This document shows positions 4,043 through 62,600 of a stretch of DNA of 64,000 nt, piece after piece; positions within the stretch are counted from its first letter, which is position 1; each line of letters begins with the position of its first letter. The notes beneath the pieces were generated by a model. The model was not told where the DNA came from, did not search any database, and saw nothing but the letters and a program-made list of their open reading frames with translations. The stretch lies in assembly GCA_024236075.1 (NCBI GenBank), contig JACKLE010000001.1, positions 450,440-514,439 on the forward strand, given 5' to 3'. Made by a program: the position numbers and the translations under genes. The stretch is from Alphaproteobacteria bacterium (GTDB lineage Bacteria; Pseudomonadota; Alphaproteobacteria; JACAEB01).

Positions 4043-4119
4043 TGGTCGGAGTGAGAGGATTCGAACCTCCGGCCCCCGCCTCCCGAAGACGGTGCTCTAC
4101 CAGGCTGAGCTACACTCCG
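4043..4119 (-). tRNA. tRNA-Pro (anticodon CGG)
   Basis: The reverse complement folds as a cloverleaf. Acceptor stem is CGGAGTG/CACTCCG, D stem GCTC/GAGC, anticodon stem CCGTC/GGCGG with loop TTCGGGA, and T loop TTCGAAT. The 3' CCA is encoded. Length 77 nt. Confidence 0.92.
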
Positions 4120-4234: not shown

Positions 4235-4308
4235 TGGGGCGTGGCCAAGCGGTAAGGCAGCGGGTTTTGGTCCCGCGATCCCAGGTTCGAATCCTGGCGC
4301 CCCAGCCA
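4235..4308 (+). tRNA. tRNA-Gln (anticodon TTG)
   Basis: Acceptor stem TGGGGCG/CGCCCCA, anticodon stem GCGGG/CCCGC with loop TTTTGGT, T arm CCAGG-TTCGAAT-CCTGG. The 3' CCA is encoded. Confidence 0.92.
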
Positions 4309-5023
4309 GCTTTCCGCGCATCCGCTTTCGCACGAGGCGCGTCAACCTTAACGCGGCGCGCCCGCGCGCTATATGACTGGAACGCGGTCGGTTACGTCTT
4401 GCGGTGCCGCGCGACTTTAGCTAGGTTCCCGCCTTGCTCGCGCGGGGTGGGGCTCGCGCGAGGGCGCCGGCCGGTTGGGCCGGCCAAGGGGACGGGGCAA
4501 GACGAGAATCGATCCGGCCGAATACGCGTCGTGACGCTTCCGGAGGAACTTCGGTTCCGGTCGAAGTGTTCGGCCGAATAAGGCCTGAATAGGGCGATCG
4601 GCGCCTTGAATTCGGCGCGACGTCATGGGATGTTTAAGAGTCAGGCGTCCAATAGAAGACGCCGATGCCCCTCTCGCCGCAGACGGTGGCCGCAAGGCCG
4701 GCGGACTCGGACGAAGAGGGCTCTCGAGGAGGCGCCGCGTCCTTTCGCGGTTCACGGCGGTCGAGGTCGGAGCCTTAAGCGGCTCCGGTCGGTCTTAACG
4801 ATGTTGCGCAAGGACGATTGCGCTCTGTGCGTGCACCTGTGACGAGCTCCGCGCGCGGATCCGTCGAAGTGGGAAGGGTGGTCAGGAAGCCGTGAGACCT
4901 TTTGGCAATATTTTCGTTTATCCGTTTGCGAACGACGGCGGGTCCGGCGGCAGGGCCGCTCGCGCGACCTTGACATCCCTCTCCAATTTGCGGAGCGGGG
5001 CATCTCTCGTGGTGAAGAGGGCA

Positions 5024-5821
5024 ATGATGACCGATCACGTGTTCCGTAGTCTGCGGGTTCTGCCGGCGGCGCTGCTGCTCGCCGGCGCGCTTGCGAGCCC
5101 CGCAGCGGCGCAGCTCGAGCAGAACAAGGGCGAGATCGCTGGGACGACGGCCGATGGCCAGAAGGCCCAGAAGGAGGTCGATCAGCTGGACGATCAGCGC
5201 GACGATCTCGAGTTCAAATATCGCCGCACGCTGCTCCAGCTCGAAGGCCTGCAGATCTACAACGACCAGCAGAAGCGCTTCATCGCGAAGCAGGAAGAAG
5301 AGAAGGTCACGCTGCAGAACCAGATCGAGAACATCGCGAGCCTGACGCGCGACCTGACGCCGCTCATGCTCGACATGGTCGCCTCGGTGAAGAAGTTCGT
5401 CGCGCTCGACCTGCCCTTCCTGCAGAAGCTGCGCAACGAGCGGATCGCGCGCCTCGATACGGTGATGGCCGATCCCCAGGCGCTGGCGGCGGACCGCTAC
5501 CGCGCGATCCTCGACATGTACAAGAGCGAGAACGAGTACGGCCGCACGATCCAGGCCTACACGGACGAAATCGAGATCGACGGCGAGAAGCGCAAGGTCG
5601 ACTTCCTGAAGATCGGCCGCGTCGGCTTCTACTACCAGACGCCCGACCAGCAGATCTCGGCCTACTTCAATCCCGACACGCGGAGCTGGGAGCGGCTGTC
5701 CGGCAGCTACAACCAGGCGATCCGCCGCGGCATCAAGATGGCGCTCGAGGTGATCCCGCCCGACGTCATGGTGCTGCCGGTCTATGTCTCGACGCAATCC
5801 TCCGAGCAACCTTCCAAGTAA
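5024..5821 (+). CDS. DUF3450-domain protein (TtpB-like, TonB-system associated), secreted coiled-coil
   Basis: Start reset to ATG 5024, with GAAGAGG 4 nt upstream. A signal peptide (LLLAGALASPAAAQ) is followed by coiled-coil sequence. The gene sits first in a MotA/ExbB-ExbD-TonB cluster. Confidence 0.75.
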   Translation: MMTDHVFRSLRVLPAALLLAGALASPAAAQLEQNKGEIAGTTADGQKAQKEVDQLDDQRDDLEFKYRRTLLQLEGLQIYNDQQKRFIAKQEEEKVTLQNQIENIASLTRDLTPLMLDMVASVKKFVALDLPFLQKLRNERIARLDTVMADPQALAADRYRAILDMYKSENEYGRTIQAYTDEIEIDGEKRKVDFLKIGRVGFYYQTPDQQISAYFNPDTRSWERLSGSYNQAIRRGIKMALEVIPPDVMVLPVYVSTQSSEQPSK

Positions 5822-5825
5822 AGCG

Positions 5826-7229
5826 ATGGGGCCGATCACGATGACCAAGCTTCGTACTCTTGCCGCGGCGGCCGCTTTCGCCGTCGCCGGCCTCATCGCG
5901 GGCGCCGCCGTCACCGGAGCCTATGCCCAGCAGGGCGAGCCCACGAACCTCAACCAGCTTCTCGACCGCGTGCGCAAAGGGCGCCAGGTCGAGCAGGCCG
6001 AGAACCTGAAGCGCATCGAGGAATTCCGCGCGAAGGTCAGCGAGCAGCGCCGCCTCCTCTCGGACGCGGAAGCGGCGGTGAAGCGCGAGGAGGCGCTCGC
6101 CGACCAGCTCAACAAGACGCTCGAGGACAATCGCAAGATCCTCACCGATCTCGAAAAGGAGCTCGCCTCGCGGGCCGGCTCGTTCCGCGAGCTCTTCGGC
6201 CAGGTGCGCCAGGCCGCCAGCGACATGAGCGGCCAGGTCGGCGCCTCCATGGTGAGCGCGCAGTTCCCCGGCCGCGAGAAGGTGCTCGACAAGCTCTCCA
6301 ACGTGCGCGGACTGCCCACGGTCGACGAGCTCGAGGATCTCTGGTTCATCCTGCAGCAGGAAGCGGTCGAGCAGGGCCGCGTGGCGCGCTTCGATGCCGA
6401 AGTGTACCGCACGGACGGCAAGGCCGTGACGACGGAAGTCGTCCGTGTCGGTCCGTTCACGGCCGTCGCCGACAACAAATATCTCGGCTTCGAGACCGAC
6501 CGCAGCACGGGCGTCCAGCAGCTCCGCTTCCTGGGCCGTCAGCCGGGCGGCGCGCTTCCGGGCGCGGCCAGCCGCCTCATGGACGTGAAGCCGGGCGAGG
6601 TCGAGAGCCTTCCGGTCGACCCCTCGCGCGGCCAGCTCCTGAAGCTGCTCATCGACTTCCCGACGCTTCGCGAGCGCATCGCCCAGGGCAAGACCGTCGG
6701 CTACATCATCATCGTGATGGGCTTCCTCGGCATGCTCCTCGCCCTCTGGCGCATTCTCGTGCTCACGGGCGTTTCGGGCGCCGTCGCCGCGCAGGCCCGC
6801 AATCCGGGCAATCCGCGCAAGGGCAATCCGCTCGGCCGCATCCTCCTCGTCGCCGAGGAGAACAAGGGCGCGGACACCGAGACGCTGGAGCTCAAGCTCG
6901 ACGAGCAGATCGTCAAGGAGCTTCCCAAGCTCGAGCTCGGCCTCAACATGATGAAGGTCGTGACCGCCGCCGCGCCGCTCCTCGGGCTGCTCGGCACGGT
7001 GACCGGGATGATCAACGTGTTCCAGACGATCACGCTGTTCGGCACCGGCGACCCCAAGCTCATGGCGAGCGGCATCTCGGAAGCTCTCGTCACGACCGTG
7101 CTGGGTCTCGTCACCGCCATTCCGATGCTCGTCTTCACGAACATCGCGGCCGGCCGCGCCAAGGCCGTGTCGCAGGTGCTCGAGGAAGAGTCGATCGGCA
7201 TCGTGGCGGCGCAGGCCGAGCGCCACTGA
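5826..7229 (+). CDS. Large MotA/TolQ/ExbB proton-channel family protein (TtpC-like)
   Basis: Signal peptide and long periplasmic coiled-coil N-terminus, then the MotA/ExbB channel core (LLGLLGTVTGMINVF...SGISEALVTTVLGL). The start could be 5826 or 5841. Confidence 0.85.
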   Translation: MGPITMTKLRTLAAAAAFAVAGLIAGAAVTGAYAQQGEPTNLNQLLDRVRKGRQVEQAENLKRIEEFRAKVSEQRRLLSDAEAAVKREEALADQLNKTLEDNRKILTDLEKELASRAGSFRELFGQVRQAASDMSGQVGASMVSAQFPGREKVLDKLSNVRGLPTVDELEDLWFILQQEAVEQGRVARFDAEVYRTDGKAVTTEVVRVGPFTAVADNKYLGFETDRSTGVQQLRFLGRQPGGALPGAASRLMDVKPGEVESLPVDPSRGQLLKLLIDFPTLRERIAQGKTVGYIIIVMGFLGMLLALWRILVLTGVSGAVAAQARNPGNPRKGNPLGRILLVAEENKGADTETLELKLDEQIVKELPKLELGLNMMKVVTAAAPLLGLLGTVTGMINVFQTITLFGTGDPKLMASGISEALVTTVLGLVTAIPMLVFTNIAAGRAKAVSQVLEEESIGIVAAQAERH

Positions 7230-7273
7230 TGGGTCGCCCAAGCGGCGTTGCCAAGGCATAGGAGCAGCCTGTC

Positions 7274-7798
7274 ATGCTCAATCCGTTCGGCGCGATCGTC
7301 GAGCTTCGAGCCTTCCTCGACAGCGGCGGAAACGTGCTCTACGCGATCATGGTGGCGACCTTCTTTCTGTGGGCGCTCATCGTGGAACGCTTCCTTTTTC
7401 TCGGCACAGCCATGCCGGGGCTCAGGAAGTCCGGCATCGCGAGCTGGAATGCGCGCCCGGAGCATTCGTCCTGGACCGCGCACAAGGTCCGCACGGGGCT
7501 CATCTCGCGCTACAAGTCGGCGGTCGAGGGCAATCTCGACATGCTCGCGACCCTCGTGGCGCTCGCCCCGCTGCTGGGCCTGCTCGGCACGGTGACGGGG
7601 ATGGTCGAGGTCTTCGACACGCTCTCCTTCCTCGGAGCGGCCAATGCGCGCGCCATGGCGGCGGGCGTCTCCAAGGCGACGCTTCCGACCATGGCGGGCA
7701 TGACGGCGGCTCTATCGGGCCTGTTCTTCAGCGAGCTCCTGCGCAAGCGCGCCGAGCGCGAAGTGCAGCGCTTCGCCGACGAGCTCGAGCTGAGGTGA
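7274..7798 (+). CDS. exbB: MotA/TolQ/ExbB proton-channel protein (ExbB)
   Basis: 174 aa with three predicted TM segments and the motif LLGLLGTVTGMVEVF...AGVSKATLPTMAGM. Confidence 0.85.
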   Translation: MLNPFGAIVELRAFLDSGGNVLYAIMVATFFLWALIVERFLFLGTAMPGLRKSGIASWNARPEHSSWTAHKVRTGLISRYKSAVEGNLDMLATLVALAPLLGLLGTVTGMVEVFDTLSFLGAANARAMAAGVSKATLPTMAGMTAALSGLFFSELLRKRAEREVQRFADELELR

Positions 7799-7808
7799 GG
7801 GGCGCGCC

Positions 7809-8234
7809 ATGAAGCACCGCAGGGCCGGAGGCGGCGAAGACGCGGCGGCGATCGACCTGACGCCGATGCTCGACATCGTCTTCATCATGCTGATCTTCTT
7901 CATCGTGACCGCGACCTTCGTTCAGGAGGAAGGGATCGAGGTCACGCGCCCGGACGAGCAGGAGTCCGTCGTCAACAATCTGGCCGTGGTCGCCATTCCG
8001 ATCCGGATCGACGGCGAGAACCGCATCTATTTCGGTTCGGGCGCGGACGAGCGCGTGATCACGGTCGGCGCGGTGCGCGCCAACGTGCAGCGCGGGCTCG
8101 CGGACGATCCGAACTCGCCGGTCATCATCCAGGCGGACGAGCGCACCGATAGCGGCATCGCCATCCGCGTGCTCGACCAGGTGAAGGCGGCGAAGCCGAA
8201 GAATGTCACGATCACCGCGGCCAAGCGCGGCTAG
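7809..8234 (+). CDS. exbD: Biopolymer transporter ExbD/TolR
   Basis: 141 aa with the typical N-terminus IDLTPMLDIVFIMLIFFIV, including the conserved Asp in the TM helix. Confidence 0.88.
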   Translation: MKHRRAGGGEDAAAIDLTPMLDIVFIMLIFFIVTATFVQEEGIEVTRPDEQESVVNNLAVVAIPIRIDGENRIYFGSGADERVITVGAVRANVQRGLADDPNSPVIIQADERTDSGIAIRVLDQVKAAKPKNVTITAAKRG

Positions 8235-8264
8235 GGGCGGTGGATCGAAAATGAGGTTAGGCGC

Positions 8265-8672
8265 ATGAAGCGGCGGAGCATAGGAGACGGCGACAGTTCC
8301 TCGCCGATCGACCTGACACCGATGCTCGACATCGTGTTCATCATGCTGATCTTCTTCATCGTGACGGCGACCTTCATCCGCGAGCCGGGCGTGAAGGTGG
8401 AGAAGCCTGCGGTGGAGACCGGGCAGCCGCTGAAGAACGTCGCCATCCTCGTCGCGATCTCGGCGGACAACATCATCTACATGGACGGCAAGCCGGTCCC
8501 GCCGCGGGACGTGCGCCCGACCATCGAGCGCCTCAGAAGCGAGAATCCGAAAGGCGGCGTGGTGATCCAGGCCGACGAAGAGGCCGATATGGGGCTCACC
8601 GTGCTTGTGATGGACGAGGCGAGGGCCGCGCGCGCGCCTTCCGTCAGCGTCTCCACGATCGAGCAGGAGTGA
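8265..8672 (+). CDS. exbD: Biopolymer transporter ExbD/TolR (second paralogue)
   Basis: 135 aa with an almost identical N-terminal motif (IDLTPMLDIVFIMLIFFIV) but a divergent periplasmic domain. Confidence 0.88.
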   Translation: MKRRSIGDGDSSSPIDLTPMLDIVFIMLIFFIVTATFIREPGVKVEKPAVETGQPLKNVAILVAISADNIIYMDGKPVPPRDVRPTIERLRSENPKGGVVIQADEEADMGLTVLVMDEARAARAPSVSVSTIEQE

Positions 8673-8682
8673 GGGCGGAGAC

Positions 8683-9297
8683 ATGCTGGGTGCGCTGCCA
8701 CGCTACATCGTCGCTCTTCCCTCCGCGGTCGTCGCCACGGTCGCCATCTTCTTCCTGATGCGCGCGCTCGTGACGACCAAGTACGAGCTTCCGGTCTCCA
8801 AGGACACGGTCTCGATCTCCGTGACGCGCCAGGAGAAGAAGGAAAACGCGATCGACGACGACCTCTTCGCGCCGCCCTCCGCGCAGGATACGCCGCCCCC
8901 GCCGCCGCTCGACCTCGAGGCGGCCGCGCCGTCCGACCTCTCGGGCACGCCCATCGCGCTGCCCGGCATGGAGGGCATCAAGTTCGGCCAGGGCGCCGTC
9001 ATCAGCTCGAATTCGCCCACGCTCATCTACATGCCGCAGGAATATCCCTCGTCCTACAGCGGCAGGCTGAACTATTGGGTGCGCGTCACCGTGGAGTTCG
9101 ACACGACCGTCAACGGCACGGCCGAGAACATCCGCGTCATCGGCATCGATCCGCCGAACGCGCCCGATGCCTTCAAGCAGGAGACCATCCGGGCCTTCCA
9201 GCGCGCGAAGTTCAAGCCGCCATTGGACGAGAAAGGCAATCCGAAGCCCACGACAGGAAACCAGCTGACGCTCGCGTTCGATCCGAAGGCACAGTAG
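8683..9297 (+). CDS. Energy transducer TonB-family protein
   Basis: N-terminal TM anchor, Pro-rich spacer (DTPPPPPLD), and a C-terminal TonB-like domain (YWVRVTVEFDTTVNGTAENIRVIG...RAKFKP). Confidence 0.8.
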   Translation: MLGALPRYIVALPSAVVATVAIFFLMRALVTTKYELPVSKDTVSISVTRQEKKENAIDDDLFAPPSAQDTPPPPPLDLEAAAPSDLSGTPIALPGMEGIKFGQGAVISSNSPTLIYMPQEYPSSYSGRLNYWVRVTVEFDTTVNGTAENIRVIGIDPPNAPDAFKQETIRAFQRAKFKPPLDEKGNPKPTTGNQLTLAFDPKAQ

Positions 9298-9300
9298 GAA

Positions 9301-10740
9301 ATGGTCCGATCACCCACGAATAGGCATCTCCGGAGCGCGGTCGCAGCGGTCGCGCTGGCCGCTGTCTGCCTCGGAGCCGTCGAGCCCGCCGGACACGCCG
9401 TCTTCGGCTCGGGCGGCGCCTGGGCGCAGGAGCAGGGCAAGGAGGAGCAGCAGAGGCGGCGTGCGAAGACCTTGTCGCCCAAGGCCTCGCAGGCCCTTCA
9501 GAAGATGCTGGCCGAGTTCAACAAGGAGCCGCCGAACTATCCCGGCGCGCTCGAGATCGTGAACCAGCTCCTGGAAAGCACCAGCCTCACGCCCTTCGAC
9601 CGCGCCATGGGCCTCTATTTCCGCGGCAGCATCTACGCGAGCATGGAGCGCTACCGGGAGGCGCAGGCCGATCTTTCGCAGTCCCTCGGCATTCCGGACG
9701 GGCTCGACTACCGCAACCGCAAGGAAGCGACGTTCACCCTCGCCAAGATTTACATGGTGACGTCGGATTTCGTGCGGGCCATCGGCCTCCTCGAGCAGTA
9801 CATCAAGGAGAGCGAGGCCGACGTGCCGCACGAGGCCTACTATCTCCTCGGCGCGGCCTATGCGCAGACGGATCAGCTTCAGAAGGCGCGCGGGCCGGCG
9901 CTCAAGGCGCTCGACATGGCCGCCAACGACGCACCGGCGCGCTATTACCAGCTCGCCGCCGCCATCCTTCTTCAGCTCAAGGACTACAAGACGGTCATCC
10001 CGATCCTCGAGCGCGGGCTGCCCTTCTTCCCGACGAACAAGGATTTCTGGCGCAACCTCCAGGTCGCCTACGCCGAGACCGACCGCGACAAGGAAGCCTT
10101 CCAGGTGCTGGAGCTCATGTATCTCCAGGGCTTCGACATGACGACGCAGGAGCTGCGCGTCCTCGCCGACCAGTACCGGGCCTTCAATGTGCCGATCAAG
10201 GCCGTGAAGCTCATCGAGCGCGAGATGGCCAAGGGCCGGCTTCCGAAGGACTTCCGCACCTGGAAGACGCTCGCCGACTCCTATCTTCAGGCCAAGGAAT
10301 GGGAGAAGGCGCGCGGGCCGCTGCGCGAGGCCGCCAAGCTCTCGCCCGAGGGCGACCTCTTCTACGATCTCTGCCAGTCCTACTTCCAGGACGAGCAGTA
10401 CCGGCAGGCCGAGGAGGCCTGCGTGCAGGCCGTCAACAAGGGCAAGCTGCGCAATCCCGGCAACGCCTGGTTCCTCATCGGCTATGCGCGCTACGAGCAG
10501 GACAAGTTCGACAGCGCGGTCGAGGCCATGGAGAAGGCGGCGAAGTTCGACAAGACCAAGGACCAGGCCGAGAAGTGGCTGGCCTGGTACGAGCAGGAGA
10601 AGAAGCGCAAGGCCGCCGTCGACGAATATCTGAAGAGCCAGCGCAAGGACGTCATCGAGGAGCTGAAGAACGAAGGCGGCGAGAAGCCGCCGGGGACGCC
10701 CCAGGGCGACGCCGCGGCTCCGGCCGCCTCGGGCGGCTGA
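9301..10740 (+). CDS. Tetratricopeptide-repeat protein (TtpD-like), secreted
   Basis: Signal peptide followed by repeated TPR-like A/Y/L patterns throughout. It lies immediately downstream of tonB (stop at 9297, ATG at 9301). Confidence 0.75.
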   Translation: MVRSPTNRHLRSAVAAVALAAVCLGAVEPAGHAVFGSGGAWAQEQGKEEQQRRRAKTLSPKASQALQKMLAEFNKEPPNYPGALEIVNQLLESTSLTPFDRAMGLYFRGSIYASMERYREAQADLSQSLGIPDGLDYRNRKEATFTLAKIYMVTSDFVRAIGLLEQYIKESEADVPHEAYYLLGAAYAQTDQLQKARGPALKALDMAANDAPARYYQLAAAILLQLKDYKTVIPILERGLPFFPTNKDFWRNLQVAYAETDRDKEAFQVLELMYLQGFDMTTQELRVLADQYRAFNVPIKAVKLIEREMAKGRLPKDFRTWKTLADSYLQAKEWEKARGPLREAAKLSPEGDLFYDLCQSYFQDEQYRQAEEACVQAVNKGKLRNPGNAWFLIGYARYEQDKFDSAVEAMEKAAKFDKTKDQAEKWLAWYEQEKKRKAAVDEYLKSQRKDVIEELKNEGGEKPPGTPQGDAAAPAASGG

Positions 10741-10890
10741 GCGCGCCGCGGGCTTCTCGATGGGCCTCGATGGGACTAGCGGGCGGCGCCTTCGGGCGCC
10801 GCTTCGCATTTCCGACCGGCCGCCGCGCGGGTAGAATGGCCCGACCGGCGCGCCCGACAGGCCGCCGCCAGGCTCTTGATGGAGAGCGCC

Positions 10891-11661
10891 ATGAATCGCC
10901 GGCCGGGCGCGGCGCTCGCTGCGCCTCTTCTCTTCGCCCTCCTTGGCGGCGCCGAGGCCGCCGACGCGCCACGCGACACGTACGCGCACTGCCTCGCTTT
11001 GCTCGAGCGCAATCCGGAGGCCGCCTTCTCCTTCGCGTCGACCTGGCGCGACGATGGCGGCGGCGCGCCCGCCCGCCATTGCGTGGCGCTCGCGCTCGTC
11101 GATCTCGGCTCGCCCGGCGAGGGCGCCTCGCGGCTCGACGATCTCGCGCGCGAGGCGGATGCGGGCGACGCGGCGACCCGCGCGCAGATTCTCTCGCAGG
11201 CGGGCAATGCCTGGCTCCTGCAGGGCGAGACGGGGCGCGCGGCGAACTCCTTCACCAGCGCGCTCGCCGTTCTGCCCTCGGGCTCGCCGCTCGCCGCCGA
11301 TCTGCGCCTCGACCGCGGGCGCACCTTCGCGCTCCTCGAGGACTATCCGAAGGCGGAGGAGGAGTTCACCGCCGCGCTCGCGGCGCGCCCCGGCTTCGTC
11401 GACGCGCTCGTGCTGCGCGCCAATGCCGAGCGCGCGCAGGGGCTCTACGCGAAGGCGCGCGCGGACATCGCCTCGGCGCTCGCCCTCGCTCCGAAGAACG
11501 CCCAGGCATGGTTCGAGCGGGGCACGACCGACTACCTCACCGGCGACATCGAAGGCGCCCGCGCCGCGCTCGGCCGCTCCTTGAGCCTGGAAGGCGAGGG
11601 GCCCGTCGCCGATGCGGCGCGCGCCGTGCTCCAGCAGATAGAGCGCCCACGGATGAATTGA
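10891..11661 (+). CDS. Tetratricopeptide-repeat protein, secreted
   Basis: ATG 10891 has GGAGAG 4 nt upstream. Signal peptide (LLFALLGGAEAADA) and TPR-like repeats (e.g. GLYAKARADIASALALAPKNAQAWFERG). Confidence 0.7.
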   Translation: MNRRPGAALAAPLLFALLGGAEAADAPRDTYAHCLALLERNPEAAFSFASTWRDDGGGAPARHCVALALVDLGSPGEGASRLDDLAREADAGDAATRAQILSQAGNAWLLQGETGRAANSFTSALAVLPSGSPLAADLRLDRGRTFALLEDYPKAEEEFTAALAARPGFVDALVLRANAERAQGLYAKARADIASALALAPKNAQAWFERGTTDYLTGDIEGARAALGRSLSLEGEGPVADAARAVLQQIERPRMN

Positions 11662-11671
11662 GACGGGAGGC

Positions 11672-13048
11672 TCAGGCGCGGGCAGTCCCCGCGTCCCGCT
11701 GGCCCGCCGCGCCGAGAACGCTCCGCAGAATGCGGCAGGCCGCGAGGTCGCCCGTGACGTTCACCACCGTCCGGCACATGTCGAGCAGGCGGTCGACGCC
11801 GAGGATGAGGATGATTCCCGTCGTCGGAATGCCGAAATCGCCGACGATGCTGGCGAGCAGCACGATCCCGACGCCCGGCGTGCCGGGCGCGCCGATCGAG
11901 GACGCGACGAGCGTCGCGACGATGAGCGCGAGATCGCCCGAGGAGAGCTCGACCCGCGACATCTGCGCGAGAAATCCCACCGCGACCGCCTGGTAGAGCG
12001 CCGTGCCCGCCATGTTGACCGTGGCGCCGAGGGGCACCACGAGACTGGCGAGCTTGGGCGGCACGTCGAGCGCCTCGACGGCGGTCTTGATCGAAAGCGG
12101 CATGACGGCCGCCGAGCTCGATGTCGAGAAGGCGAGGAGCTGAACCGGCGCGATGGCCCGGACGAAGCGCCATGGGCCGATGGCTCCGAAGAGGCCCGCG
12201 AGGAGCGCGAAAAGGACGAGCAGGAGCCCCAGCCCCACGAGCACGGTCGCCACATAGGCCCACATGCCGGCCAGCGTCGACAGGCCGACCCTCGCGACGA
12301 GCTCGGCCATCAGCCCGAACACGGCGAGCGGCATGAGCCACATGGCCCATTTGACCACCGTCATGGAGATCTCGAGCAGCGCCTCGAAGAGACGCGCGAG
12401 CGGCGCGAGGGTGTCGCGGCGCTGCGAGGTCGCGAACGCTATGCCGACGAAGATCGCGAACATGACGATCGCCAGCATCTGCTGATCGACGATGGCGGCG
12501 ACGATGTTCTGCGGGATGAACTCGACGATCCGGCGCGTGACCTCGCCGGACAGGCTCTCGATCGATCTGAGCGCGCCGGCCGCGGTCTCCGCCTCCGCGG
12601 CAAGCGTCGGCTTGGGCAGCGGCGTCGCGGGGGCGTCGAGGTGGATGCGCTCGCCGGGACGGACGGCGGAGGCGAGGGCGAGCCCCAGGCCGGCGGCGAG
12701 CGTCGTCGTGGCGACGATATAGAGGGTCAATCGTCCGCCCACGGCGCGAAGCTCGTCGCCGCTCGCCGAGCCGCCGAGCCCGAGGATGATCGAGGAGATG
12801 ACCAGGGGAACGAGCACCATGCCGATGAGGCTGAGAAAGAGCCGCCCCGGGAGGGCCAGCCACGTGCCGAGCGCCTCGGAAATTCCGCGCGGCACGATGG
12901 CGAGATCGGGTCCGAGCAGCACGCCGACGCCGATGCCCGCGACGAGGCCGATCACGACCTGGAGCCAAAGCCGCACGCGGATCCAGGCGTCGATGCGCTT
13001 CTGCAGCGAGCGATAGCCGATGCGGGGCGGTCGTGGCGTCTGGCTCAT
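11672..13048 (-). CDS. Dicarboxylate/amino acid:cation symporter (DAACS family)
   Basis: Start reset to MSQTPRPP (ATG 13046-13048). The upstream part of the 554-aa ORF overlaps queG in another frame. It is polytopic with DAACS-like motifs (STSSSAAVMPL, GATVNMAGTALYQ, DRLLDMCRTVVNVTGD). Confidence 0.85.
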   Translation of the reverse strand: MSQTPRPPRIGYRSLQKRIDAWIRVRLWLQVVIGLVAGIGVGVLLGPDLAIVPRGISEALGTWLALPGRLFLSLIGMVLVPLVISSIILGLGGSASGDELRAVGGRLTLYIVATTTLAAGLGLALASAVRPGERIHLDAPATPLPKPTLAAEAETAAGALRSIESLSGEVTRRIVEFIPQNIVAAIVDQQMLAIVMFAIFVGIAFATSQRRDTLAPLARLFEALLEISMTVVKWAMWLMPLAVFGLMAELVARVGLSTLAGMWAYVATVLVGLGLLLVLFALLAGLFGAIGPWRFVRAIAPVQLLAFSTSSSAAVMPLSIKTAVEALDVPPKLASLVVPLGATVNMAGTALYQAVAVGFLAQMSRVELSSGDLALIVATLVASSIGAPGTPGVGIVLLASIVGDFGIPTTGIILILGVDRLLDMCRTVVNVTGDLAACRILRSVLGAAGQRDAGTARA

Positions 13049-13061
13049 GGCGTGCCTCGTC

Positions 13062-14213
<1,152 letters not shown>

Positions 14214-14265
14214 GACAAACTGCCCGTTTTATGTGCCTTCTTCGCGCGCTCGTATGACCTTGTGC

Positions 14266-14320
14266 TGCATTTCGTCGCGCAACGTTGCTGAAATGCAACA
14301 CTAAAATGTCAAATTTTGAC
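14266..14320. promoter_or_regulatory. Cluster of inverted repeats (candidate operators or RNA structure)
   Basis: TGCATTTC (14266-14273) and GAAATGCA (14290-14297) flank the perfect palindrome GCAACGTTGC. A second palindrome GTCAAA-T-TTTGAC lies at 14308-14320. GAAATGCAAC recurs at 14392-14401. Confidence 0.35.
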
Positions 14321-14336
14321 CAAACATTTTTGGCCT

Positions 14337-14365
14337 TTGACAACTTTGTACATCTAACGCTAAGT
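14337..14365 (+). promoter_or_regulatory. Sigma70-type promoter candidate for the island ORFs
   Basis: TTGACA (14337-14342), a 17-nt spacer, then CTAAGT (14360-14365), about 70 nt upstream of ORF1. Confidence 0.45.
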
Positions 14366-14434
14366 GCGCGTGCAATTTGTCCCCCTAGCAGGAAATGCAA
14401 CTACACTGAATTGTGGTTGCTAGGAGGTATCGGA

Positions 14435-14608
14435 ATGGAATCGGAGGAGCGTGAGTCGTTGTTCTCGAGGCTTGAGATCTTGCCTGGCATTCTTGCTGCC
14501 AGGTCGATTTCGCCTGAGTTTATGAAGCTGGGATATTGCCGGAACGAGCTGCCAAAGCCCGTGACGCCGCAGCTTGCTATTCCGACCTCACTTATCTCGC
14601 GTAAGTAA
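14435..14608 (+). CDS. Small hypothetical protein (57 aa) in AT-rich island
   Basis: ATG 14435 is preceded by a perfect AGGAGG (14422-14427) with a 7-nt spacer. I recognise no family. Confidence 0.5.
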   Translation: MESEERESLFSRLEILPGILAARSISPEFMKLGYCRNELPKPVTPQLAIPTSLISRK

Positions 14609-14657
14609 GCCCAAACTTATCACTGACGCCTTGACGGAGGCCGTGCATTAGTTCGAA

Positions 14658-15275
14658 ATGCGCGGCCTCATTGCTTGGTGGCGAAAAATGACAACTTTGA
14701 CCATAACGCCGACTACGCTCCCGGACATGCGTTCTAATTTCGATGTCTTCAGGGAAGTATTCTATAAGCACGTGGATCGCGTGTGCCAAACGAAAGCGCG
14801 CCTCGTCCCGCGTCTTATGCGCGATAGGATGTACACGGCCTGGGAGGCTTGGAATTCGGACCTCAAGAGAGTTGAAGATCATGAGCCTAATATTACGCAG
14901 GCGGATCATTTCAAGCATTGTGGCCATCTTATATTTTGGCTTCGTCGTCAGCAGCCAATTGTGGAACTGTATGAAGCTCGTGTGGCGCAAGATGCTCCTG
15001 GATATGACCTGATTCAGTCTGAGCAAGAGGTAAGGAATTTTCTTACGTGCTATGCGAACGAATTCTTTGCGTGGGATGTCGGGTACATAATATGTAACTA
15101 TTACGTGTCGGATATCTGTGCGAAAAGCGCGGGTCTGTCTCTATCTCCAGCGCCGGTTATCTCGGTTTCAAACGAATTTGTCACAAACATATGTAACATG
15201 ATGAAATTCAAGAGCGTGTCCCCTCACTCTTTATACCTAATACTTGCCGCGCTCTTCGAGGGTCGAAGCTTCTAA
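14658..15275 (+). CDS. Hypothetical protein (205 aa, or 195 aa from ATG 14688) in AT-rich island
   Basis: A 618-nt open frame in AT-rich DNA, where stop codons should be frequent. The composition is protein-like and rich in aromatics and Cys. No motif recognised. The start is ambiguous. Confidence 0.55.
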   Translation: MRGLIAWWRKMTTLTITPTTLPDMRSNFDVFREVFYKHVDRVCQTKARLVPRLMRDRMYTAWEAWNSDLKRVEDHEPNITQADHFKHCGHLIFWLRRQQPIVELYEARVAQDAPGYDLIQSEQEVRNFLTCYANEFFAWDVGYIICNYYVSDICAKSAGLSLSPAPVISVSNEFVTNICNMMKFKSVSPHSLYLILAALFEGRSF

Positions 15276-15277
15276 CC

Positions 15278-15943
15278 TCAGAAGTCGAGGTCGGCATAGT
15301 GGGCCGGGGGCTCGATGCCGGCCGTCTGGTCGGCGAGAAGGGGGCGGAAGGAGGGGCGCGACTTGACGCGCGCATACCACTCCTTGAGGCGGGGATGGTC
15401 TTCCCACGGAACGTCGTCCAGGAAGTCCAGGGTCGAGATCTGCGCGGCGGCCGCGAGATCGGCGAGGCTGAGGCGCTCGCCCGCGAGGAAATGGCGCCGG
15501 TCGGCAAGGCCCTCCAGCACGTCGAGATGGGCGGGGCGGCGCGCGCGGGCCTCGCGGATCCGCGTCATGTCGGGCCCGCCCATGTGCTTCTCGCGGCGCA
15601 TCACCTTCTCGAAGAGGAGCGGCTCGACGACCTCGGGCCAGAGCCCCCCGGCGAGCCAGTGCGCGAGGCGCCGCGCCTCCGCGCGCGCGAGCGGCCCGCC
15701 CGGCAGCAGCGTCGGCTCGGGGGCGTTCTCCTCGGCGAACTCGGCGATGACGAGCGAGTCGGGCACGACATGGCGCTCGTCCACCACGAGCACGGGCACG
15801 GTCCCGGCCGGATTGAGGCGCGGGAAGTCCTCGTCCTCCCACGGATGAATTCTCACCAGATCGAAGGCGAACCCCTTCTCGGCGAGCGCGAGCCGCGCCA
15901 GGCGCGAGAAGGGGCAGAGCGGCATATGGAGGAGGGTGAGCAT
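15278..15943 (-). CDS. Glutathione S-transferase family protein
   Basis: N-terminal thioredoxin-like GST fold (MPLCPFSRLARLALAEKG...NPAGTVPVLV) and a helical C-terminal domain. Confidence 0.85.
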   Translation of the reverse strand: MLTLLHMPLCPFSRLARLALAEKGFAFDLVRIHPWEDEDFPRLNPAGTVPVLVVDERHVVPDSLVIAEFAEENAPEPTLLPGGPLARAEARRLAHWLAGGLWPEVVEPLLFEKVMRREKHMGGPDMTRIREARARRPAHLDVLEGLADRRHFLAGERLSLADLAAAAQISTLDFLDDVPWEDHPRLKEWYARVKSRPSFRPLLADQTAGIEPPAHYADLDF

Positions 15944-27532: not shown

Positions 27533-27619
27533 GCCCAGGTGGCGGAACTGGTAGACGCGCTAGCTTCAGGTGCTAGTGACCTAACGGTCGTGGAGGTTCG
27601 AGTCCTCTCCTGGGCACCA
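27533..27619 (+). tRNA. tRNA-Leu (anticodon CAG)
   Basis: Acceptor GCCCAGG/CCTGGGC, anticodon stem CTAGC/GCTAG with loop TTCAGGT, a long variable arm, T arm GGAGG-TTCGAGT-CCTCT, and an encoded CCA. Length 87 nt. Confidence 0.92.
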
Positions 27620-51842: not shown

Positions 51843-51937
51843 GGGCGGCGCGGTTGACTCGTCCCCGCCGCCTCATATCATTGTGCAAGGCAGCAAGACT
51901 CGGGGCGAGCCCAGGGTCGTGCCGCTCAGCTAAGCGA

Positions 51938-52140
51938 TGCTTGCGGGAGAGACCGGGCCCTCGGGGCCCGGCGCCGAAGGAGCAACCGGCCCCGGAAACT
52001 CTCAGGCAAAAGGGACCGCAAGCGGATAGCGCTCTGGAAAGCGGGTGGGCGGCGTTCGTCCACCACACCGAAGGAGTAAGTGTCCTCAGGCCCTCGAAAG
52101 GGCCCGGGGCGCGAATCTCTCAGGTCCGAGGACAGAGGGG
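51938..52140 (+). promoter_or_regulatory. Tandem glycine riboswitch (two aptamers) upstream of gcvT
   Basis: Aptamer 1: GGGAGAG...GCGCCGAAGGAGCAA...CTCAGGCAAAAGGGAC. Aptamer 2: CTCTGGAAAG...CACACCGAAGGAGTAA...CTCAGGTCCGAGGACAGAG. Both match conserved glycine-riboswitch core elements, and the position 5' of gcvT is canonical. Confidence 0.85.
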
Positions 52141-59647: not shown

Positions 59648-62600
59648 TCAGCCGGCTAGGGCGACGCGCTCGGCATCGGCGAGATCGACCGAGACGAGCT
59701 GGCTGACGCCGCGCTCCGCCATGGTGACCCCGAAGAGGCGGTCGAGCCGCGACATGGTGAGCGGGTGGTGCGTGATGACGAGGAAGCGCGTCTCCGTGAG
59801 GCGGCGCATCTCGTCGAGCAGATTGCAGAAGCGGTCCACATTGGCGTCGTCGAGCGGCGCGTCGACCTCGTCGAGCACGCAGATCGGCGCCGGATTCGTG
59901 AGGAAGACCGCGAATATGAGCGACATGGCGGTCAAGGCCTGCTCGCCGCCCGACAAAAGCGACATGGTCTGAAGCCGCTTGCCGGGAGGGCGGGCGAAAA
60001 TCTCGAGGCCCGCCTGGAGGGGATCGTCGGCCTCGGTGAGCTTCAGCTCCGCCGCGCCGCCGTTGAAGAGGCGGGTGAAGAGCTGCTCGAAATGGGCGCG
60101 CACGGCCTCGAACGCCTCGCTCAGGCGTTCCCGGCCTTCCTTGTTGAGGCTCGAGATCGCCTGGCGCAGACGGTCGATCGCCTCCTCCAGATCGTGCCTC
60201 TCGGCATTGAGCTCGTTGAGGCGCGTCTCGCACTCTTCCGCTTCGATCTCGGCACGGAGATTGACTGCGCCCAGGGCCTCGCGGTCGCGGCGGAAGCGGT
60301 CGAGCTGGCCCTCGATCTCCGAAAGCTCCGGCAGGCCGTCGAGGCTCTCGATGCCGGCCTTGGAGAGCGCCTCTTCCGGCGCGCAGTCGAAGGCCTCGCG
60401 GATGCGCTCGGCGCTCTCGGCGAGGCGCTGGCGATGGCCCTGCAGCGTCGCCTCCTCGCGGGCGCGCGCAAGGCCGATCTCGTGGGCGGCGGCCTCGGCG
60501 GCGCGGTGAGCCTCGCGGGCGGCGCGGTGCGCGGCCTCGCCTTCGGCGAGACGGTCGCCGGCCTCCCGGCGCGCGGCCTCCGCCTCGGCGAAAGTCTCGC
60601 CGAGCGACCGGAGATTTGCAGCGATCTCGTCCGGCACGGCGCGAGCGCGCTCGAGCGCGCCCTTGAGGCCGCCCGCCCGCTCGGTGAGGCGCGCGCTCTG
60701 CGCGAGGGCCCGCTCGATGCGCTCCTTCCAGGCCCGCGTCTCCTCGGCGATGGCCTGCTGCCGGGAGCGTCGCATCTCGCCGTCGCGCTTCAGCGTGTCG
60801 AGCGCGACCTGCGCGGCGGAGGAGGCCGCGCGGGCCTCGGCGGTCTCGAGCTGCGCGGCCTCGGCGGCGGCCTTGAGGGCCTCTCCGTCGGGCAGTCGCC
60901 CGAGCGTGCCTTCGGCCGCGCTCAACGCCTCGGACACGTCGGACTGCTCGGCCCGCAGGTGCTGGAGCTCGGCCGTGAGCCCGGACAGGCGCTCGCGCGC
61001 ACCGGCCGCGGCCCGCTCGGCGGCCCCGAGCTTCGCGCGCGCCCTGGCGAGCTCTCCCTCGGCGGCGCGCAGGGCTGCGCGCGCCTCGCGCTCGGCGAGG
61101 AGCGTCGCCTCGCCGGCGCGGCGGGCGGCGTCATGGCCGTCGCGGGCGGCGCGGGCGGCCGCTTCCGCATTGGGCAGCGCCTGCTCGAGCTCCTTCAGCC
61201 GGTTGCGCTGGGCGAGACGCTGGGCGGCGGGCGTCGGCGCCTCGGCGCTCACGGCAAACCCGTCCCAGCGCCAGAGATCGCCGCGGCGCGAGACCAGCCG
61301 CTGGCCCGGCTTGAGGCGCGCCTGAAGGAAGCCGCCCTGTCCGTCCTCGACGACGCCGACCTGGGAGAGGCGGCGGTCGAGCGCCGTCGGCGCGTCGACG
61401 AGCGCGGAGAGCGGCACGGCGCCCTCCGGCAGAGGCGGGAAGGGCGCGCCCGGCGGCAGCGTGCGCCAGTGGAGCGGCGCGGCCTCGTCGGTCGACGCGT
61501 TGAGGTCGTCGCCGAGCGCGGCGCCCAGCGCCGCCTCGAAGCCCGGCGCGACCGTGAGCTGGTCGACGACCGGCGGCCAGAGCGCGCCGGCCTCGAGCTT
61601 CAGGAGCGCGACCAGCGCCTCCGCCTCGGCCTTGAGCCTCGCGACCTGCCGGTCGGCCTCGGAGAGCGGACCGCGGGCCGTGCGCTCGTCGGTCTCCGCG
61701 GCTTCGCGCGCGGTCTCCGCGCCGCGAACCGTCCCGGCGCGCTCCTCGACCAGCCGCTCGGCGCTCTCGACCTCGGCGCGAGCCGCGAGGGAGAGAGCCT
61801 CCGCCTCGCGGTCGGCGCCGGCCGTCGCGAGCTCGGCCTCGCGCGCGGCGAGGCGTTCGGCAAGTCGGGTCGCCCGCGCGGAAAGCTCGGCGAGGCGGGC
61901 GCGGGCCGCCTGCTCGTCGGCGCGGGCCCTCGCGAGCGCGTCGCGGGCATTGTCGAGCGCGTGCTCGGCGGCGGCGAGGCGCGCGCGCGCGGCCATGGCG
62001 GCCTCCTCCCCGCGTGTCAGCGGTTCGGCGGCGCCTTCCTCGGCGGCGTGCAGCGCGCGCTCCTCCTCGGCGAGGCGTGTGAGGACGCTCTCGCCGTCCG
62101 CAAGGAAGGTGCGCTCGCGATTGAGATCCTCGAACGCGGTGCGCAGATCGGCCTCGAGCCGCGCGATCTCGGCCTGGGCCCGGCGCCCGCTCTCCTCGAG
62201 ACGCTCGCGCTCCAGCCCGAGGCGCTGGTGGCGCGCCGCGGCCTCGGCGTCGGCCGCCCGCAGGGGCGTCAGCGCCGCCTGGGACTCGTCCTCGGCGGCG
62301 GCGGCCTGGGAAAGGCGCAAGGTGGCCTCGGCCCCGTCGCGCTCGAGCGTGCGCAGGCTCGCTTCCGCCTCGAGCGCGGCGGCGCCCGCCTCAGCCCAGC
62401 GGGCATGAAGCACCAGCGCCTCGAGCCGCGCGATCTGCTCGCTGAGCCGGCGATAGCGTGTCGCCTGGCGGGCCTGGCGCTTCAGTCCCGAAAGCTGCGC
62501 CTCGATCTGCTGCACCACGTCCTCGACGCGGGCGAGATTGGCCTCGGCGGCCTTCAGCTTGAGCTCCGCCTCGTGACGGCGGGCATGGAGGCCGGCAATG

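Follow-up and report, generated by a model that had tools for sequence, protein, structure and literature searches.

A low-G+C insert between glutathione S-transferase and queG genes carries a conserved gene pair with a toxin–antitoxin-like layout

Introduction

In class I Fic toxin–antitoxin (TA) pairs such as FicT-FicA and VbhT-VbhA, an inhibitor of about 60 amino acids is encoded just upstream of a Fic-fold enzyme, whilst the genes of classical type II pairs usually overlap or lie a few nucleotides apart. The Phd-Doc pair shows the same order of small protein and larger effector within one operon, with the effector Doc being a Fic-fold kinase of EF-Tu. Type III TA loci (ToxIN, AbiQ/AntiQ) are arranged as promoter, antitoxin, Rho-independent terminator and toxin, an order in which the terminator is believed to ensure a surplus of antitoxin (PMC8167048). 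The Fic and Doc folds belong to the Fido (Fic/Doc/AvrB) superfamily, whose motif consists of the loop between two central helices together with the N-terminus of the second helix; AvrB itself is a Fido-fold protein that lacks the Fic motif, keeps the topology and the nucleotide-phosphate site and escapes detection by sequence (PMC2686095). Here we analyse a short low-G+C insert that separates the epoxyqueuosine reductase gene queG from a glutathione S-transferase (GST) gene in a 64-kb stretch of alphaproteobacterial DNA (contig JACKLE010000001.1; this whole stretch is referred to as the window), and which carries two open reading frames (ORFs): ORF1, encoding a small protein of 57 amino acids (aa), and ORF2, encoding a protein of 195 aa.

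When compared to the systems above, the pair resembles a type II module in its layout and a type III module in its terminator. As in Phd-Doc and in the FicT-FicA and VbhT-VbhA pairs, a gene for a small protein stands upstream of the gene for a larger protein, here the presumed effector, in what appears to be one operon; unlike in Phd-Doc, the two genes are parted by a hairpin-bearing spacer and are uncoupled. Our leading interpretation, which we hold tentatively and rate slightly short of an even chance, is by analogy that the insert represents one copy of a mobile two-gene TA-like (addiction or abortive-infection) module, which would combine a Doc-like effector with an over-produced small partner.

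Results and Discussion

The insert and its two genes

The features of the insert that bear on its coding capacity are the following:

14190-15277, no strand: low-G+C insert, 528 of 1088 nucleotides (nt) G or C (48.5%), between queG and the GST gene
14422-14427, plus strand: Shine-Dalgarno sequence AGGAGG, 7 nt before the ATG of ORF1
14435-14608, plus strand: ORF1, 57 aa, divergent member of a small-partner family, placed by its score against the partner hidden Markov model (HMM) and retaining Y34, N37 and P40
14688-15275, plus strand: ORF2, 195 aa, member of an unannotated helical protein family, placed by HMMER, alignment motifs and an AlphaFold2 (AF2) model

The flanks of the insert have a G+C content of 72.0% and 70.4% over 2 kb on each side, with the composition boundaries placed by maximum likelihood at approximately 14182 and 15300. 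Across the 1-kb bins of the window the bin holding the insert is the sole low one (0.552 G+C), the others ranging from 0.645 to 0.80, and the G+C content at third codon positions is 0.53 for ORF2 and 0.66 for ORF1, set against 0.90 for queG and 0.92 for GST. An initial annotation, made from the sequence, had counted 20 of 60 G+C at 14281-14340 and 48 of 60 at 15301-15360; both counts were reproduced, as were its two plus-strand reading frames: ORF1 extends from ATG 14435 to a TAA ending at 14608, preceded by AGGAGG with the 7-nt spacer described, and ORF2 ends with TAA at 15273-15275, 2 nt from the convergent stop codon of the GST gene (15278-15280). That a frame of this length would be improbable by chance, as had been proposed, agrees with shuffling of the insert, in which an ATG-initiated ORF of at least 195 aa occurred in 1 of 2000 shuffles. 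The insert and its immediate surroundings are free of integrase and transposase ORFs, again in line with the initial annotation, and neither boundary repeats nor terminal inverted repeats nor a target-site duplication were found at the edges of the insert using a 7-nt seed; an Rfam scan of the insert returned no family, even at an expectation value (E) of 1 or below. Foreign origin of the segment, as an insert interrupting a conserved gene pair, is supported.

Both edges of the insert carry the hexamer TCAGAA (14203-14208 and 15278-15283), a match that is compatible with chance and too short to be taken as a target-site duplication. An ORF of 144 aa lies antisense to ORF2 (14592-15026, minus strand), which we take as a by-product of the open frame opposite.

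Two starts had been considered for ORF2, at 14658 (205 aa) and at 14688 (195 aa), and it is the latter that holds: the upstream codon ATG 14658 is part of a hairpin arm, alignments with homologues begin at residue 14-16 of the longer form of 205 aa, and the copy found in the database has 195 aa. A word-indexed protein search recovered only this identical 195-aa copy, in Logan assemblies SRR12358675 and SRR12358676 and in the same context, so that ORF2 together with the GST gene is present in identical form in two independent sequencing runs. Taken alone, this search would have misled: exhaustive HMMER searching of 1.84 billion representatives identified 225 related clusters at E≤1e-3, 104 of them at E≤1e-10, and the description of ORF2 as an orphan was therefore wrong. 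The best 150 matches are mostly of about 170-255 aa and covered over most of their length, with fragments of 79-166 aa also among them. The family is defined by the motifs W..D..R, DHFK..GHL..W.RR..P, Y.NE..AF and K.K.VSPH, and the ORF2 protein of the window retains both invariant and all 14 near-invariant residues. Clusters are small (19 of the 20 checked have one or two members, one has three), and those that carry a name are all called "hypothetical protein"; one member of the family comes from Ca. Thiosymbion oneisti (WP_141699306.1).

ORF1 had likewise been called an orphan, and this too proved incorrect, as it belongs to a small-partner family of its own. In our sample (45 metagenome loci together with contigs from ENA, Logan and NCBI), the gene ahead of the large one is a small ORF, of about 53-76 aa, that displays the core [FY][IV][ED]GY[FL]..R..G.RP.YGYP.NHLP, in which Y and N are invariant and P is near-invariant across 30 partners. 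Using an HMM built without the window sequence, a member of the small family was found upstream on the same strand in 39 of 46 distinct loci, which is the adjacent, co-oriented and conserved pairing of small partner and presumed effector that marks a type II TA layout; in seven loci the small gene had been called independently by gene callers. Against the HMM from the other loci ORF1 scores 17.3 bits, compared to 7.2 bits for the best of 2000 shuffles, and of the 720 reading-frame segments in the window no other matches at E<0.01. Between L096 and L097, the two loci closest to each other, the ratio of non-synonymous to synonymous substitution rates (dN/dS) is approximately 0.09 in the small gene and 0.04 in the large one. 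Both are real, protein-coding genes under purifying selection, and these results support the two ORFs as a real, conserved pair.

Several other roles for the small gene were tried and rejected. It is neither an RNA antitoxin nor a mere leader peptide, given its amino acid conservation and the dN/dS value of about 0.09, and control by ribosome stalling was discarded because the conserved motif lies about 50 nt or more upstream of the stop codon, too far from the hairpin described below. Longer members of the large family do not represent fusions of the two proteins, their N-terminal extensions being without the Y..N..P motif. An inhibitory glutamate of the FicA type was also rejected: many small partners do contain strings resembling [ST]xxx[ED]G as part of the [FY][IV][ED]GY motif, a likeness to FicT-FicA and VbhT-VbhA, but the (S/T)xxxE(G/N) pattern is unconserved, with K, T, R, N or P at the Glu position in several members (P in the window), and the Fic motif that such a Glu would block is absent here.

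Regulatory anatomy of the cassette

Four elements surround ORF1 and the space between the two genes:

14264-14299, no strand: inverted repeat TGCATTTC-N16-GAAATGCA, operator-like, arms at 14266-14273 and 14290-14297, with two copies of GAAATGCA[AG]C
14337-14365, plus strand: candidate promoter TTGACA-N17-CTAAGT, with a perfect -35 hexamer (14337-14342) and a poor -10 hexamer, read from the sequence
14392-14401, plus strand: third copy, GAAATGCAAC, 20 nt upstream of the ribosome-binding site
14637-14669, plus strand: intercistronic hairpin with a 13-bp stem, a 7-nt loop and a weak U tail, folding energy -30.9 kcal/mol, z=-3.18

The spacer between the two genes usually measures about 50-100 nt and in most loci bears a strong hairpin; the hairpin sequences are unrelated to each other, and many run into a T tract. 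Folding of 16 spacers gave z≤-1.9 in 12 cases and z≤-3 in 8, and 17 of 24 loci have a stem of 7 bp or more without interruption, compared to 7.3 loci on average and 12 at most over 200 shuffles. In loci L102 and L126 terminator-like sites were called exactly at the spacer hairpin, downstream of sigma-70-like promoters. The intercistronic hairpin is thus conserved, and the large gene has no room for a promoter of its own behind it and must, we infer, therefore depend on read-through. It is here that the locus comes closest to type III TA systems, with a terminator-like hairpin between the small and the large gene in the same layout; it departs from them in that the upstream element is protein-coding, with no family of direct repeats within ORF1, and in that ORF2 is not ToxN- or AbiQ-like, as it has no Pfam or PADLOC match.

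The palindromic, putatively operator-like repeats that had been pointed out upstream of ORF1 were confirmed: GAAATGCA[AG]C has three matches with at most one mismatch, all within 14264-14401 and none elsewhere in the window. Related palindromes of the TGTTGCA..TGCAACA type stand upstream in many other loci, and the types of upstream palindrome follow the protein subfamilies. Thus in L095, L100 and L124 the place of the TGTTGCA/TGCAACA palindromes of many other loci is taken by repeats of the TGTACA type, for example GTGTACATCAATGTACACTGATGTACAC, and the small proteins of these three loci form a subgroup of their own (YGY[SVC].NHL); this suggests that operator and small protein co-vary. Among hexamers, enrichment is strongest for TGTTGC, found in 13 of 29 upstream regions compared to 3.2 expected, a count equal to that of the best hexamer in shuffles and no higher.

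The promoter of the window copy is less clear. The initial annotation had described it as near-consensus, which could not be reproduced: the hexamer CTAAGT, 17 nt downstream of TTGACA, is poor, and a consensus scan passed no site. In L102 and L126, clearer sigma-70-like promoters occupy the corresponding position. This bears on the possibility that the copy in this genome is an inert remnant, a silenced or decaying fragment whose sole present effect would be the rebuilt 5' end of queG. The lack of any promoter-like site passing the scan would fit such a fate, as would the divergence of ORF1, the most divergent of the partners, and the G+C contrast with the host, which at 0.21 is the largest of all loci and would suit a recent arrival and possible xenogeneic silencing. 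Against decay stands the state of the cassette itself: both reading frames are intact, ORF2 keeps its complete set of invariant and near-invariant residues and ORF1 its Y34, N37 and P40 behind a perfect Shine-Dalgarno sequence, hairpin and operator-like repeats are preserved, and ORF2 and GST are identical in the two independent sequencing runs. We regard an inert remnant as very improbable.

Predicted fold of ORF2 and comparison with Doc

The AF2 model of ORF2, computed from the family alignment, is mostly helical (predicted local distance difference test score (pLDDT) 93.2, predicted template modelling (TM) score 0.90), and a second family member, 31% identical to the ORF2 protein of the window, was modelled with a pLDDT of 93.7. 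In Foldseek searches against the PDB, all five chains of phage P1 Doc placed above every other fold, at ranks 1-3, 7 and 17 for ORF2 and at ranks 1-5 for the second model, with probabilities of 0.69-0.99 and root-mean-square deviations of 3.0-6.1 Å across both models, at E-values of only 0.2-3.6. The TM-scores are 0.67-0.75 when normalised to Doc and 0.45-0.55 when normalised to the query. Doc is the only coherent structural match in the PDB for both models; the second model also weakly matches human FICD, another eukaryotic Fic protein and AnkX, lower in the list, and a structural search of BFVD gave nothing. The predicted fold of ORF2 thus appears to resemble that of Doc.

The resemblance can be followed to the region of the Fido motif. 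In the ORF2 model, loop 66-73 joins helices 45-65 and 74-88, with an invariant D73-H74-x-K76 at the N-terminus of the second helix; as in Doc, a loop of eight residues connects the two helices at the centre, with conserved polar residues at the start of the second helix. The helix-loop-helix register would accordingly be the same as in Doc, in terms of secondary structure only. There are also differences: the Doc motif H-x-F-x-D-A-N-K-R is absent from ORF2, the ORF2 protein exceeds Doc by about 70 residues and contains additional helices as well as two short strands, and its small partner is not a Phd/YefM protein, with no Pfam match for ORF1 and 30 further partners. A Fic/Doc-like fold without the canonical motif has a precedent in AvrB, but AvrB is a secreted Pseudomonas syringae effector that targets eukaryotes and contains an inserted domain, and it is not among the Foldseek matches of the ORF2 models. 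An assignment as HEPN RNase was tried and rejected: ORF2 has only K-x4-H (K175..H180) and no Rx4-6H, HEPN structures were matched with TM-scores of 0.20-0.24 and probabilities of 0.03-0.04, and no Pfam HEPN match was obtained.

Sequence libraries gave no assignment for either protein. As the initial annotation had already stated, ORF2 carries no motif that assigns it to a known family: neither window protein matches Pfam, NCBIfam, PHROGs or PADLOC, the sole near-match being DUF6514 with E=0.1, below its cut-off. Pfam Fic gave no match for the window protein at E≤1 nor for 60 family members at E≤0.1, the component models of PADLOC-DB 2.0 matched neither the two window proteins nor these 60 members, and 30 members of the small family together with ORF1 had no Pfam match, the sources giving them only "hypothetical" names. 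Keyword searches of the literature found no description of the family, which such searches cannot exclude. The family of ORF2 and ORF1 is absent from all four libraries searched. Failing on both the motif and the sequence models, the pair cannot be filed as Fic/Doc, and it is not Phd/YefM, HEPN, ToxIN or any PADLOC system.

A possible TA-like mechanism

Based on these findings, a TA-like module of this kind might operate as follows. A promoter region with operator-like repeats would drive ORF1, giving the 57-aa protein with its conserved Y..N..P core, and the strong intercistronic hairpin would stop or stabilise most transcripts after ORF1. ORF2 would therefore be made by read-through only and remain scarce and sub-stoichiometric, so that, by virtue of the hairpin, the small protein would outnumber a Fido-fold effector that could be harmful. 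In this effector a conserved set of polar residues (D58, R61, D73-H74-x-K76, H80, R86-R87, E125, K175 and S178-P179-H180) may replace the Fic motif on a Doc/Fic-like scaffold, most likely to give an enzyme that transfers phosphate or nucleotide groups to some target in the cell. ORF1 would bind and restrain ORF2, and autoregulation could take place at the upstream repeats.

A number of results weigh against this interpretation. With regard to layout, the spacer of 50-100 nt with its terminator is unlike classical type II pairs, and in ORF1 no DNA-binding domain can be recognised and Pfam shows no likeness to Phd/YefM; the window copy is also the most divergent partner, without the [ED]GY[FL] motif, albeit with Y34, N37 and P40 in place. 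With regard to fold, the Foldseek E-values for Doc are weak, alignment of the family profile to the Doc sequence by hhalign (checked against 3K33) gave a probability of 0.2, and a profile search of PDB sequences did not find Doc or anything else of use. The family consensus lacks the Fic motif HPFx[D/E]GN[G/K]R and reads DHFKxxGHLAYWLRRxxP at the corresponding helix. To this can be added that the scans of ORF1 and ORF2 against the four libraries returned nothing, that the 60 members of the large family yielded no Pfam and no PADLOC match, and that no homologue was found in IMG/VR viral contigs or in plasmid and phage collections.

The initial annotation had likened the pair to toxin–antitoxin, abortive-infection or regulator–effector layouts, a proposal that can be upheld in part. 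By analogy, gene layout, a patchy and mobile distribution (see below), the hairpin and the Doc/Fic-like predicted fold speak in its favour; the missing Fic motif and the lack of Pfam and PADLOC matches do not. A more far-reaching version, possible but in our judgement on the doubtful side, is that the large protein establishes a separate, new branch within the Fido superfamily, with a different catalytic constellation (DHFK..GH together with K.K.VSPH) and perhaps a new chemistry or target. Combined with the Y..N..P peptide and the intercistronic terminator, this would be a protein-antitoxin counterpart of the type III layout, spreading among Proteobacteria and repeatedly settling at tight junctions of housekeeping operons (GST/queG, prfA/prmC, after gyrB) without a recombinase of its own. 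Were the TA-like reading correct, the cassette would represent a TA or defence family outside all four libraries in which the Doc/Fic scaffold is kept and the catalytic motif replaced, and thus a compact test case for the evolution of new chemistry on the Fido fold, as well as an example of a protein antitoxin kept in excess by a built-in terminator rather than by translational coupling. Both proteins are small, the candidate catalytic residues are defined, and new TA-like families are found regularly.

Distribution of the cassette and alternative functions

In 22 of 22 loci the G+C content of the cassette is below that of the flanks, by 0.10 on average and by as much as 0.21, the largest value, in the window; it correlates with the G+C content of the host (r=0.63). 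Many copies are solitary inserts among housekeeping genes: in Ca. Thiosymbion oneisti the cassette (L141, 5631-6802 of FLUY01001438.1) lies between prmC and prfA on the opposite strand, another copy directly follows dnaA-dnaN-recF-gyrB, and further copies are located between a PfkB kinase gene and MltA or adjoin CysNC, GlpX, GltX and glnB-glnA. Other contexts point to mobile DNA, with a D5-type primase, IS1595 or IS1-like transposases or a DNA methylase nearby. The copies L146 and L147 adjoin ArdC and a relaxase, and in L126 (TARA contig, 4969-12625) the cassette has a TraG/VirD4 coupling protein on one side and a 1219-aa protein with a SIR2_2 domain on the other, possibly a defence locus carried by a conjugative element. 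The module is thus horizontally mobile and patchily distributed, with lower G+C than its surroundings.

The genes prmC and prfA usually form one operon with hemA, and the cassette splits them in Ca. Thiosymbion oneisti. The small partner gene of this copy is present (GTG start, ...RYSYPENGVP...) and is uncalled in the record.

The contexts also bear on two alternative functions. The first is a non-toxic accessory module, in which ORF2 would act as a binding protein or as a modifying enzyme of a Fido-like kind, with ORF1 as the substrate, cofactor or regulator dedicated to it, and mobile DNA would carry the two for a conditional benefit (such as stress response or anti-defence) without addiction or suicide logic. 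The neighbourhood of L146 and L147, with the anti-restriction protein ArdC beside a relaxase, is typical of plasmid establishment genes and in keeping with such a role, no known toxin or antitoxin domain was detected in either protein, and the invariant tyrosine of the small protein (Y34) would suit a hydroxyl acceptor, Fic enzymes being known to modify Tyr, Thr or Ser (PMC2686095). Against this stand the solitary copies between housekeeping genes without other cargo, which typify self-stabilising modules rather than genes dependent on the setting of a mobile element, and the presumed built-in scarcity of the large protein relative to the small one, which better fits the restraint of a harmful product; on balance we consider an accessory module unlikely.

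The second is a dedicated anti-phage defence system, that is an abortive-infection or phage-sensing effector with ORF1 as a sensor or inhibitor released on infection, and with no plasmid addiction. The patchy, low-G+C distribution and an effector fold related to Doc would agree with this, as would the copy beside the 1219-aa SIR2_2 protein on a conjugative element and another in a D5-type primase island. Most contexts are however ordinary core genes rather than defence islands, and none of the 60 members matches PADLOC; moreover, this explanation overlaps heavily with the TA-like reading and differs from it in physiological role only. As a separate explanation it appears quite improbable, and the TA-like module remains the reading that we prefer.

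The GST-queG junction

The insertion site of the window copy comprises three further features:

13062-14213, minus strand: queG (epoxyqueuosine reductase), identified by Pfam QueG_DUF1730 and Fer4_16
14190-14213, minus strand: chimeric 5' end of queG, with GTG start at 14213 and the first 8 codons from insert DNA, placed by sequence and by the composition boundary at approximately 14182-14190
15278-15943, minus strand: glutathione S-transferase gene, identified by Pfam GST_N and GST_C

In a QueG scan with one genome per species, 80 alphaproteobacterial loci were among the matches listed, the best relative listed being 68% identical. In most of these 80 listed loci a GST homologue stands directly upstream of queG on the same strand, and the gap between GST stop and queG start has a median of -20 nt (i.e. 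an overlap; n=67 alphaproteobacterial loci), compared to 1064 nt in the window, the start-codon calls behind these figures being approximate. The linkage of GST and queG is found across many alphaproteobacterial orders (loci L003-L082).

The GST protein aligns through its last residue with its relatives. As had been noted initially, the first eight codons of queG (GTG ACA CAT TCT GAA TTT GCA ATC) are A/T-rich, and they lie inside the low-G+C DNA. Since the GST C-terminus is intact in the alignment and the GTG start and first eight codons of queG are insert DNA, the earlier suggestion that the insertion rebuilt the 5' end of queG is supported: a tiny foreign module splits a gene pair that is usually adjacent or overlapping and donates both start codon and N-terminus to a housekeeping gene, a case that bears on the tolerance of core operons to such insertions. 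In the consensus promoter scan no site for queG passed.

Other features of the window

Outside the insert and its flanking genes, the window contains tandem glycine riboswitch aptamers in their classic arrangement (51934-52137, plus strand; Rfam RF00504, 69.1 and 41.3 bits). Three tRNA genes are present at 4046-4119 (minus strand), 4235-4305 (plus strand) and 27533-27616 (plus strand), the first two being divergent and about 115 nt apart. The 1-kb bin with the highest G+C content of the window is 61001-62000, at 0.80 compared to about 0.70 elsewhere.

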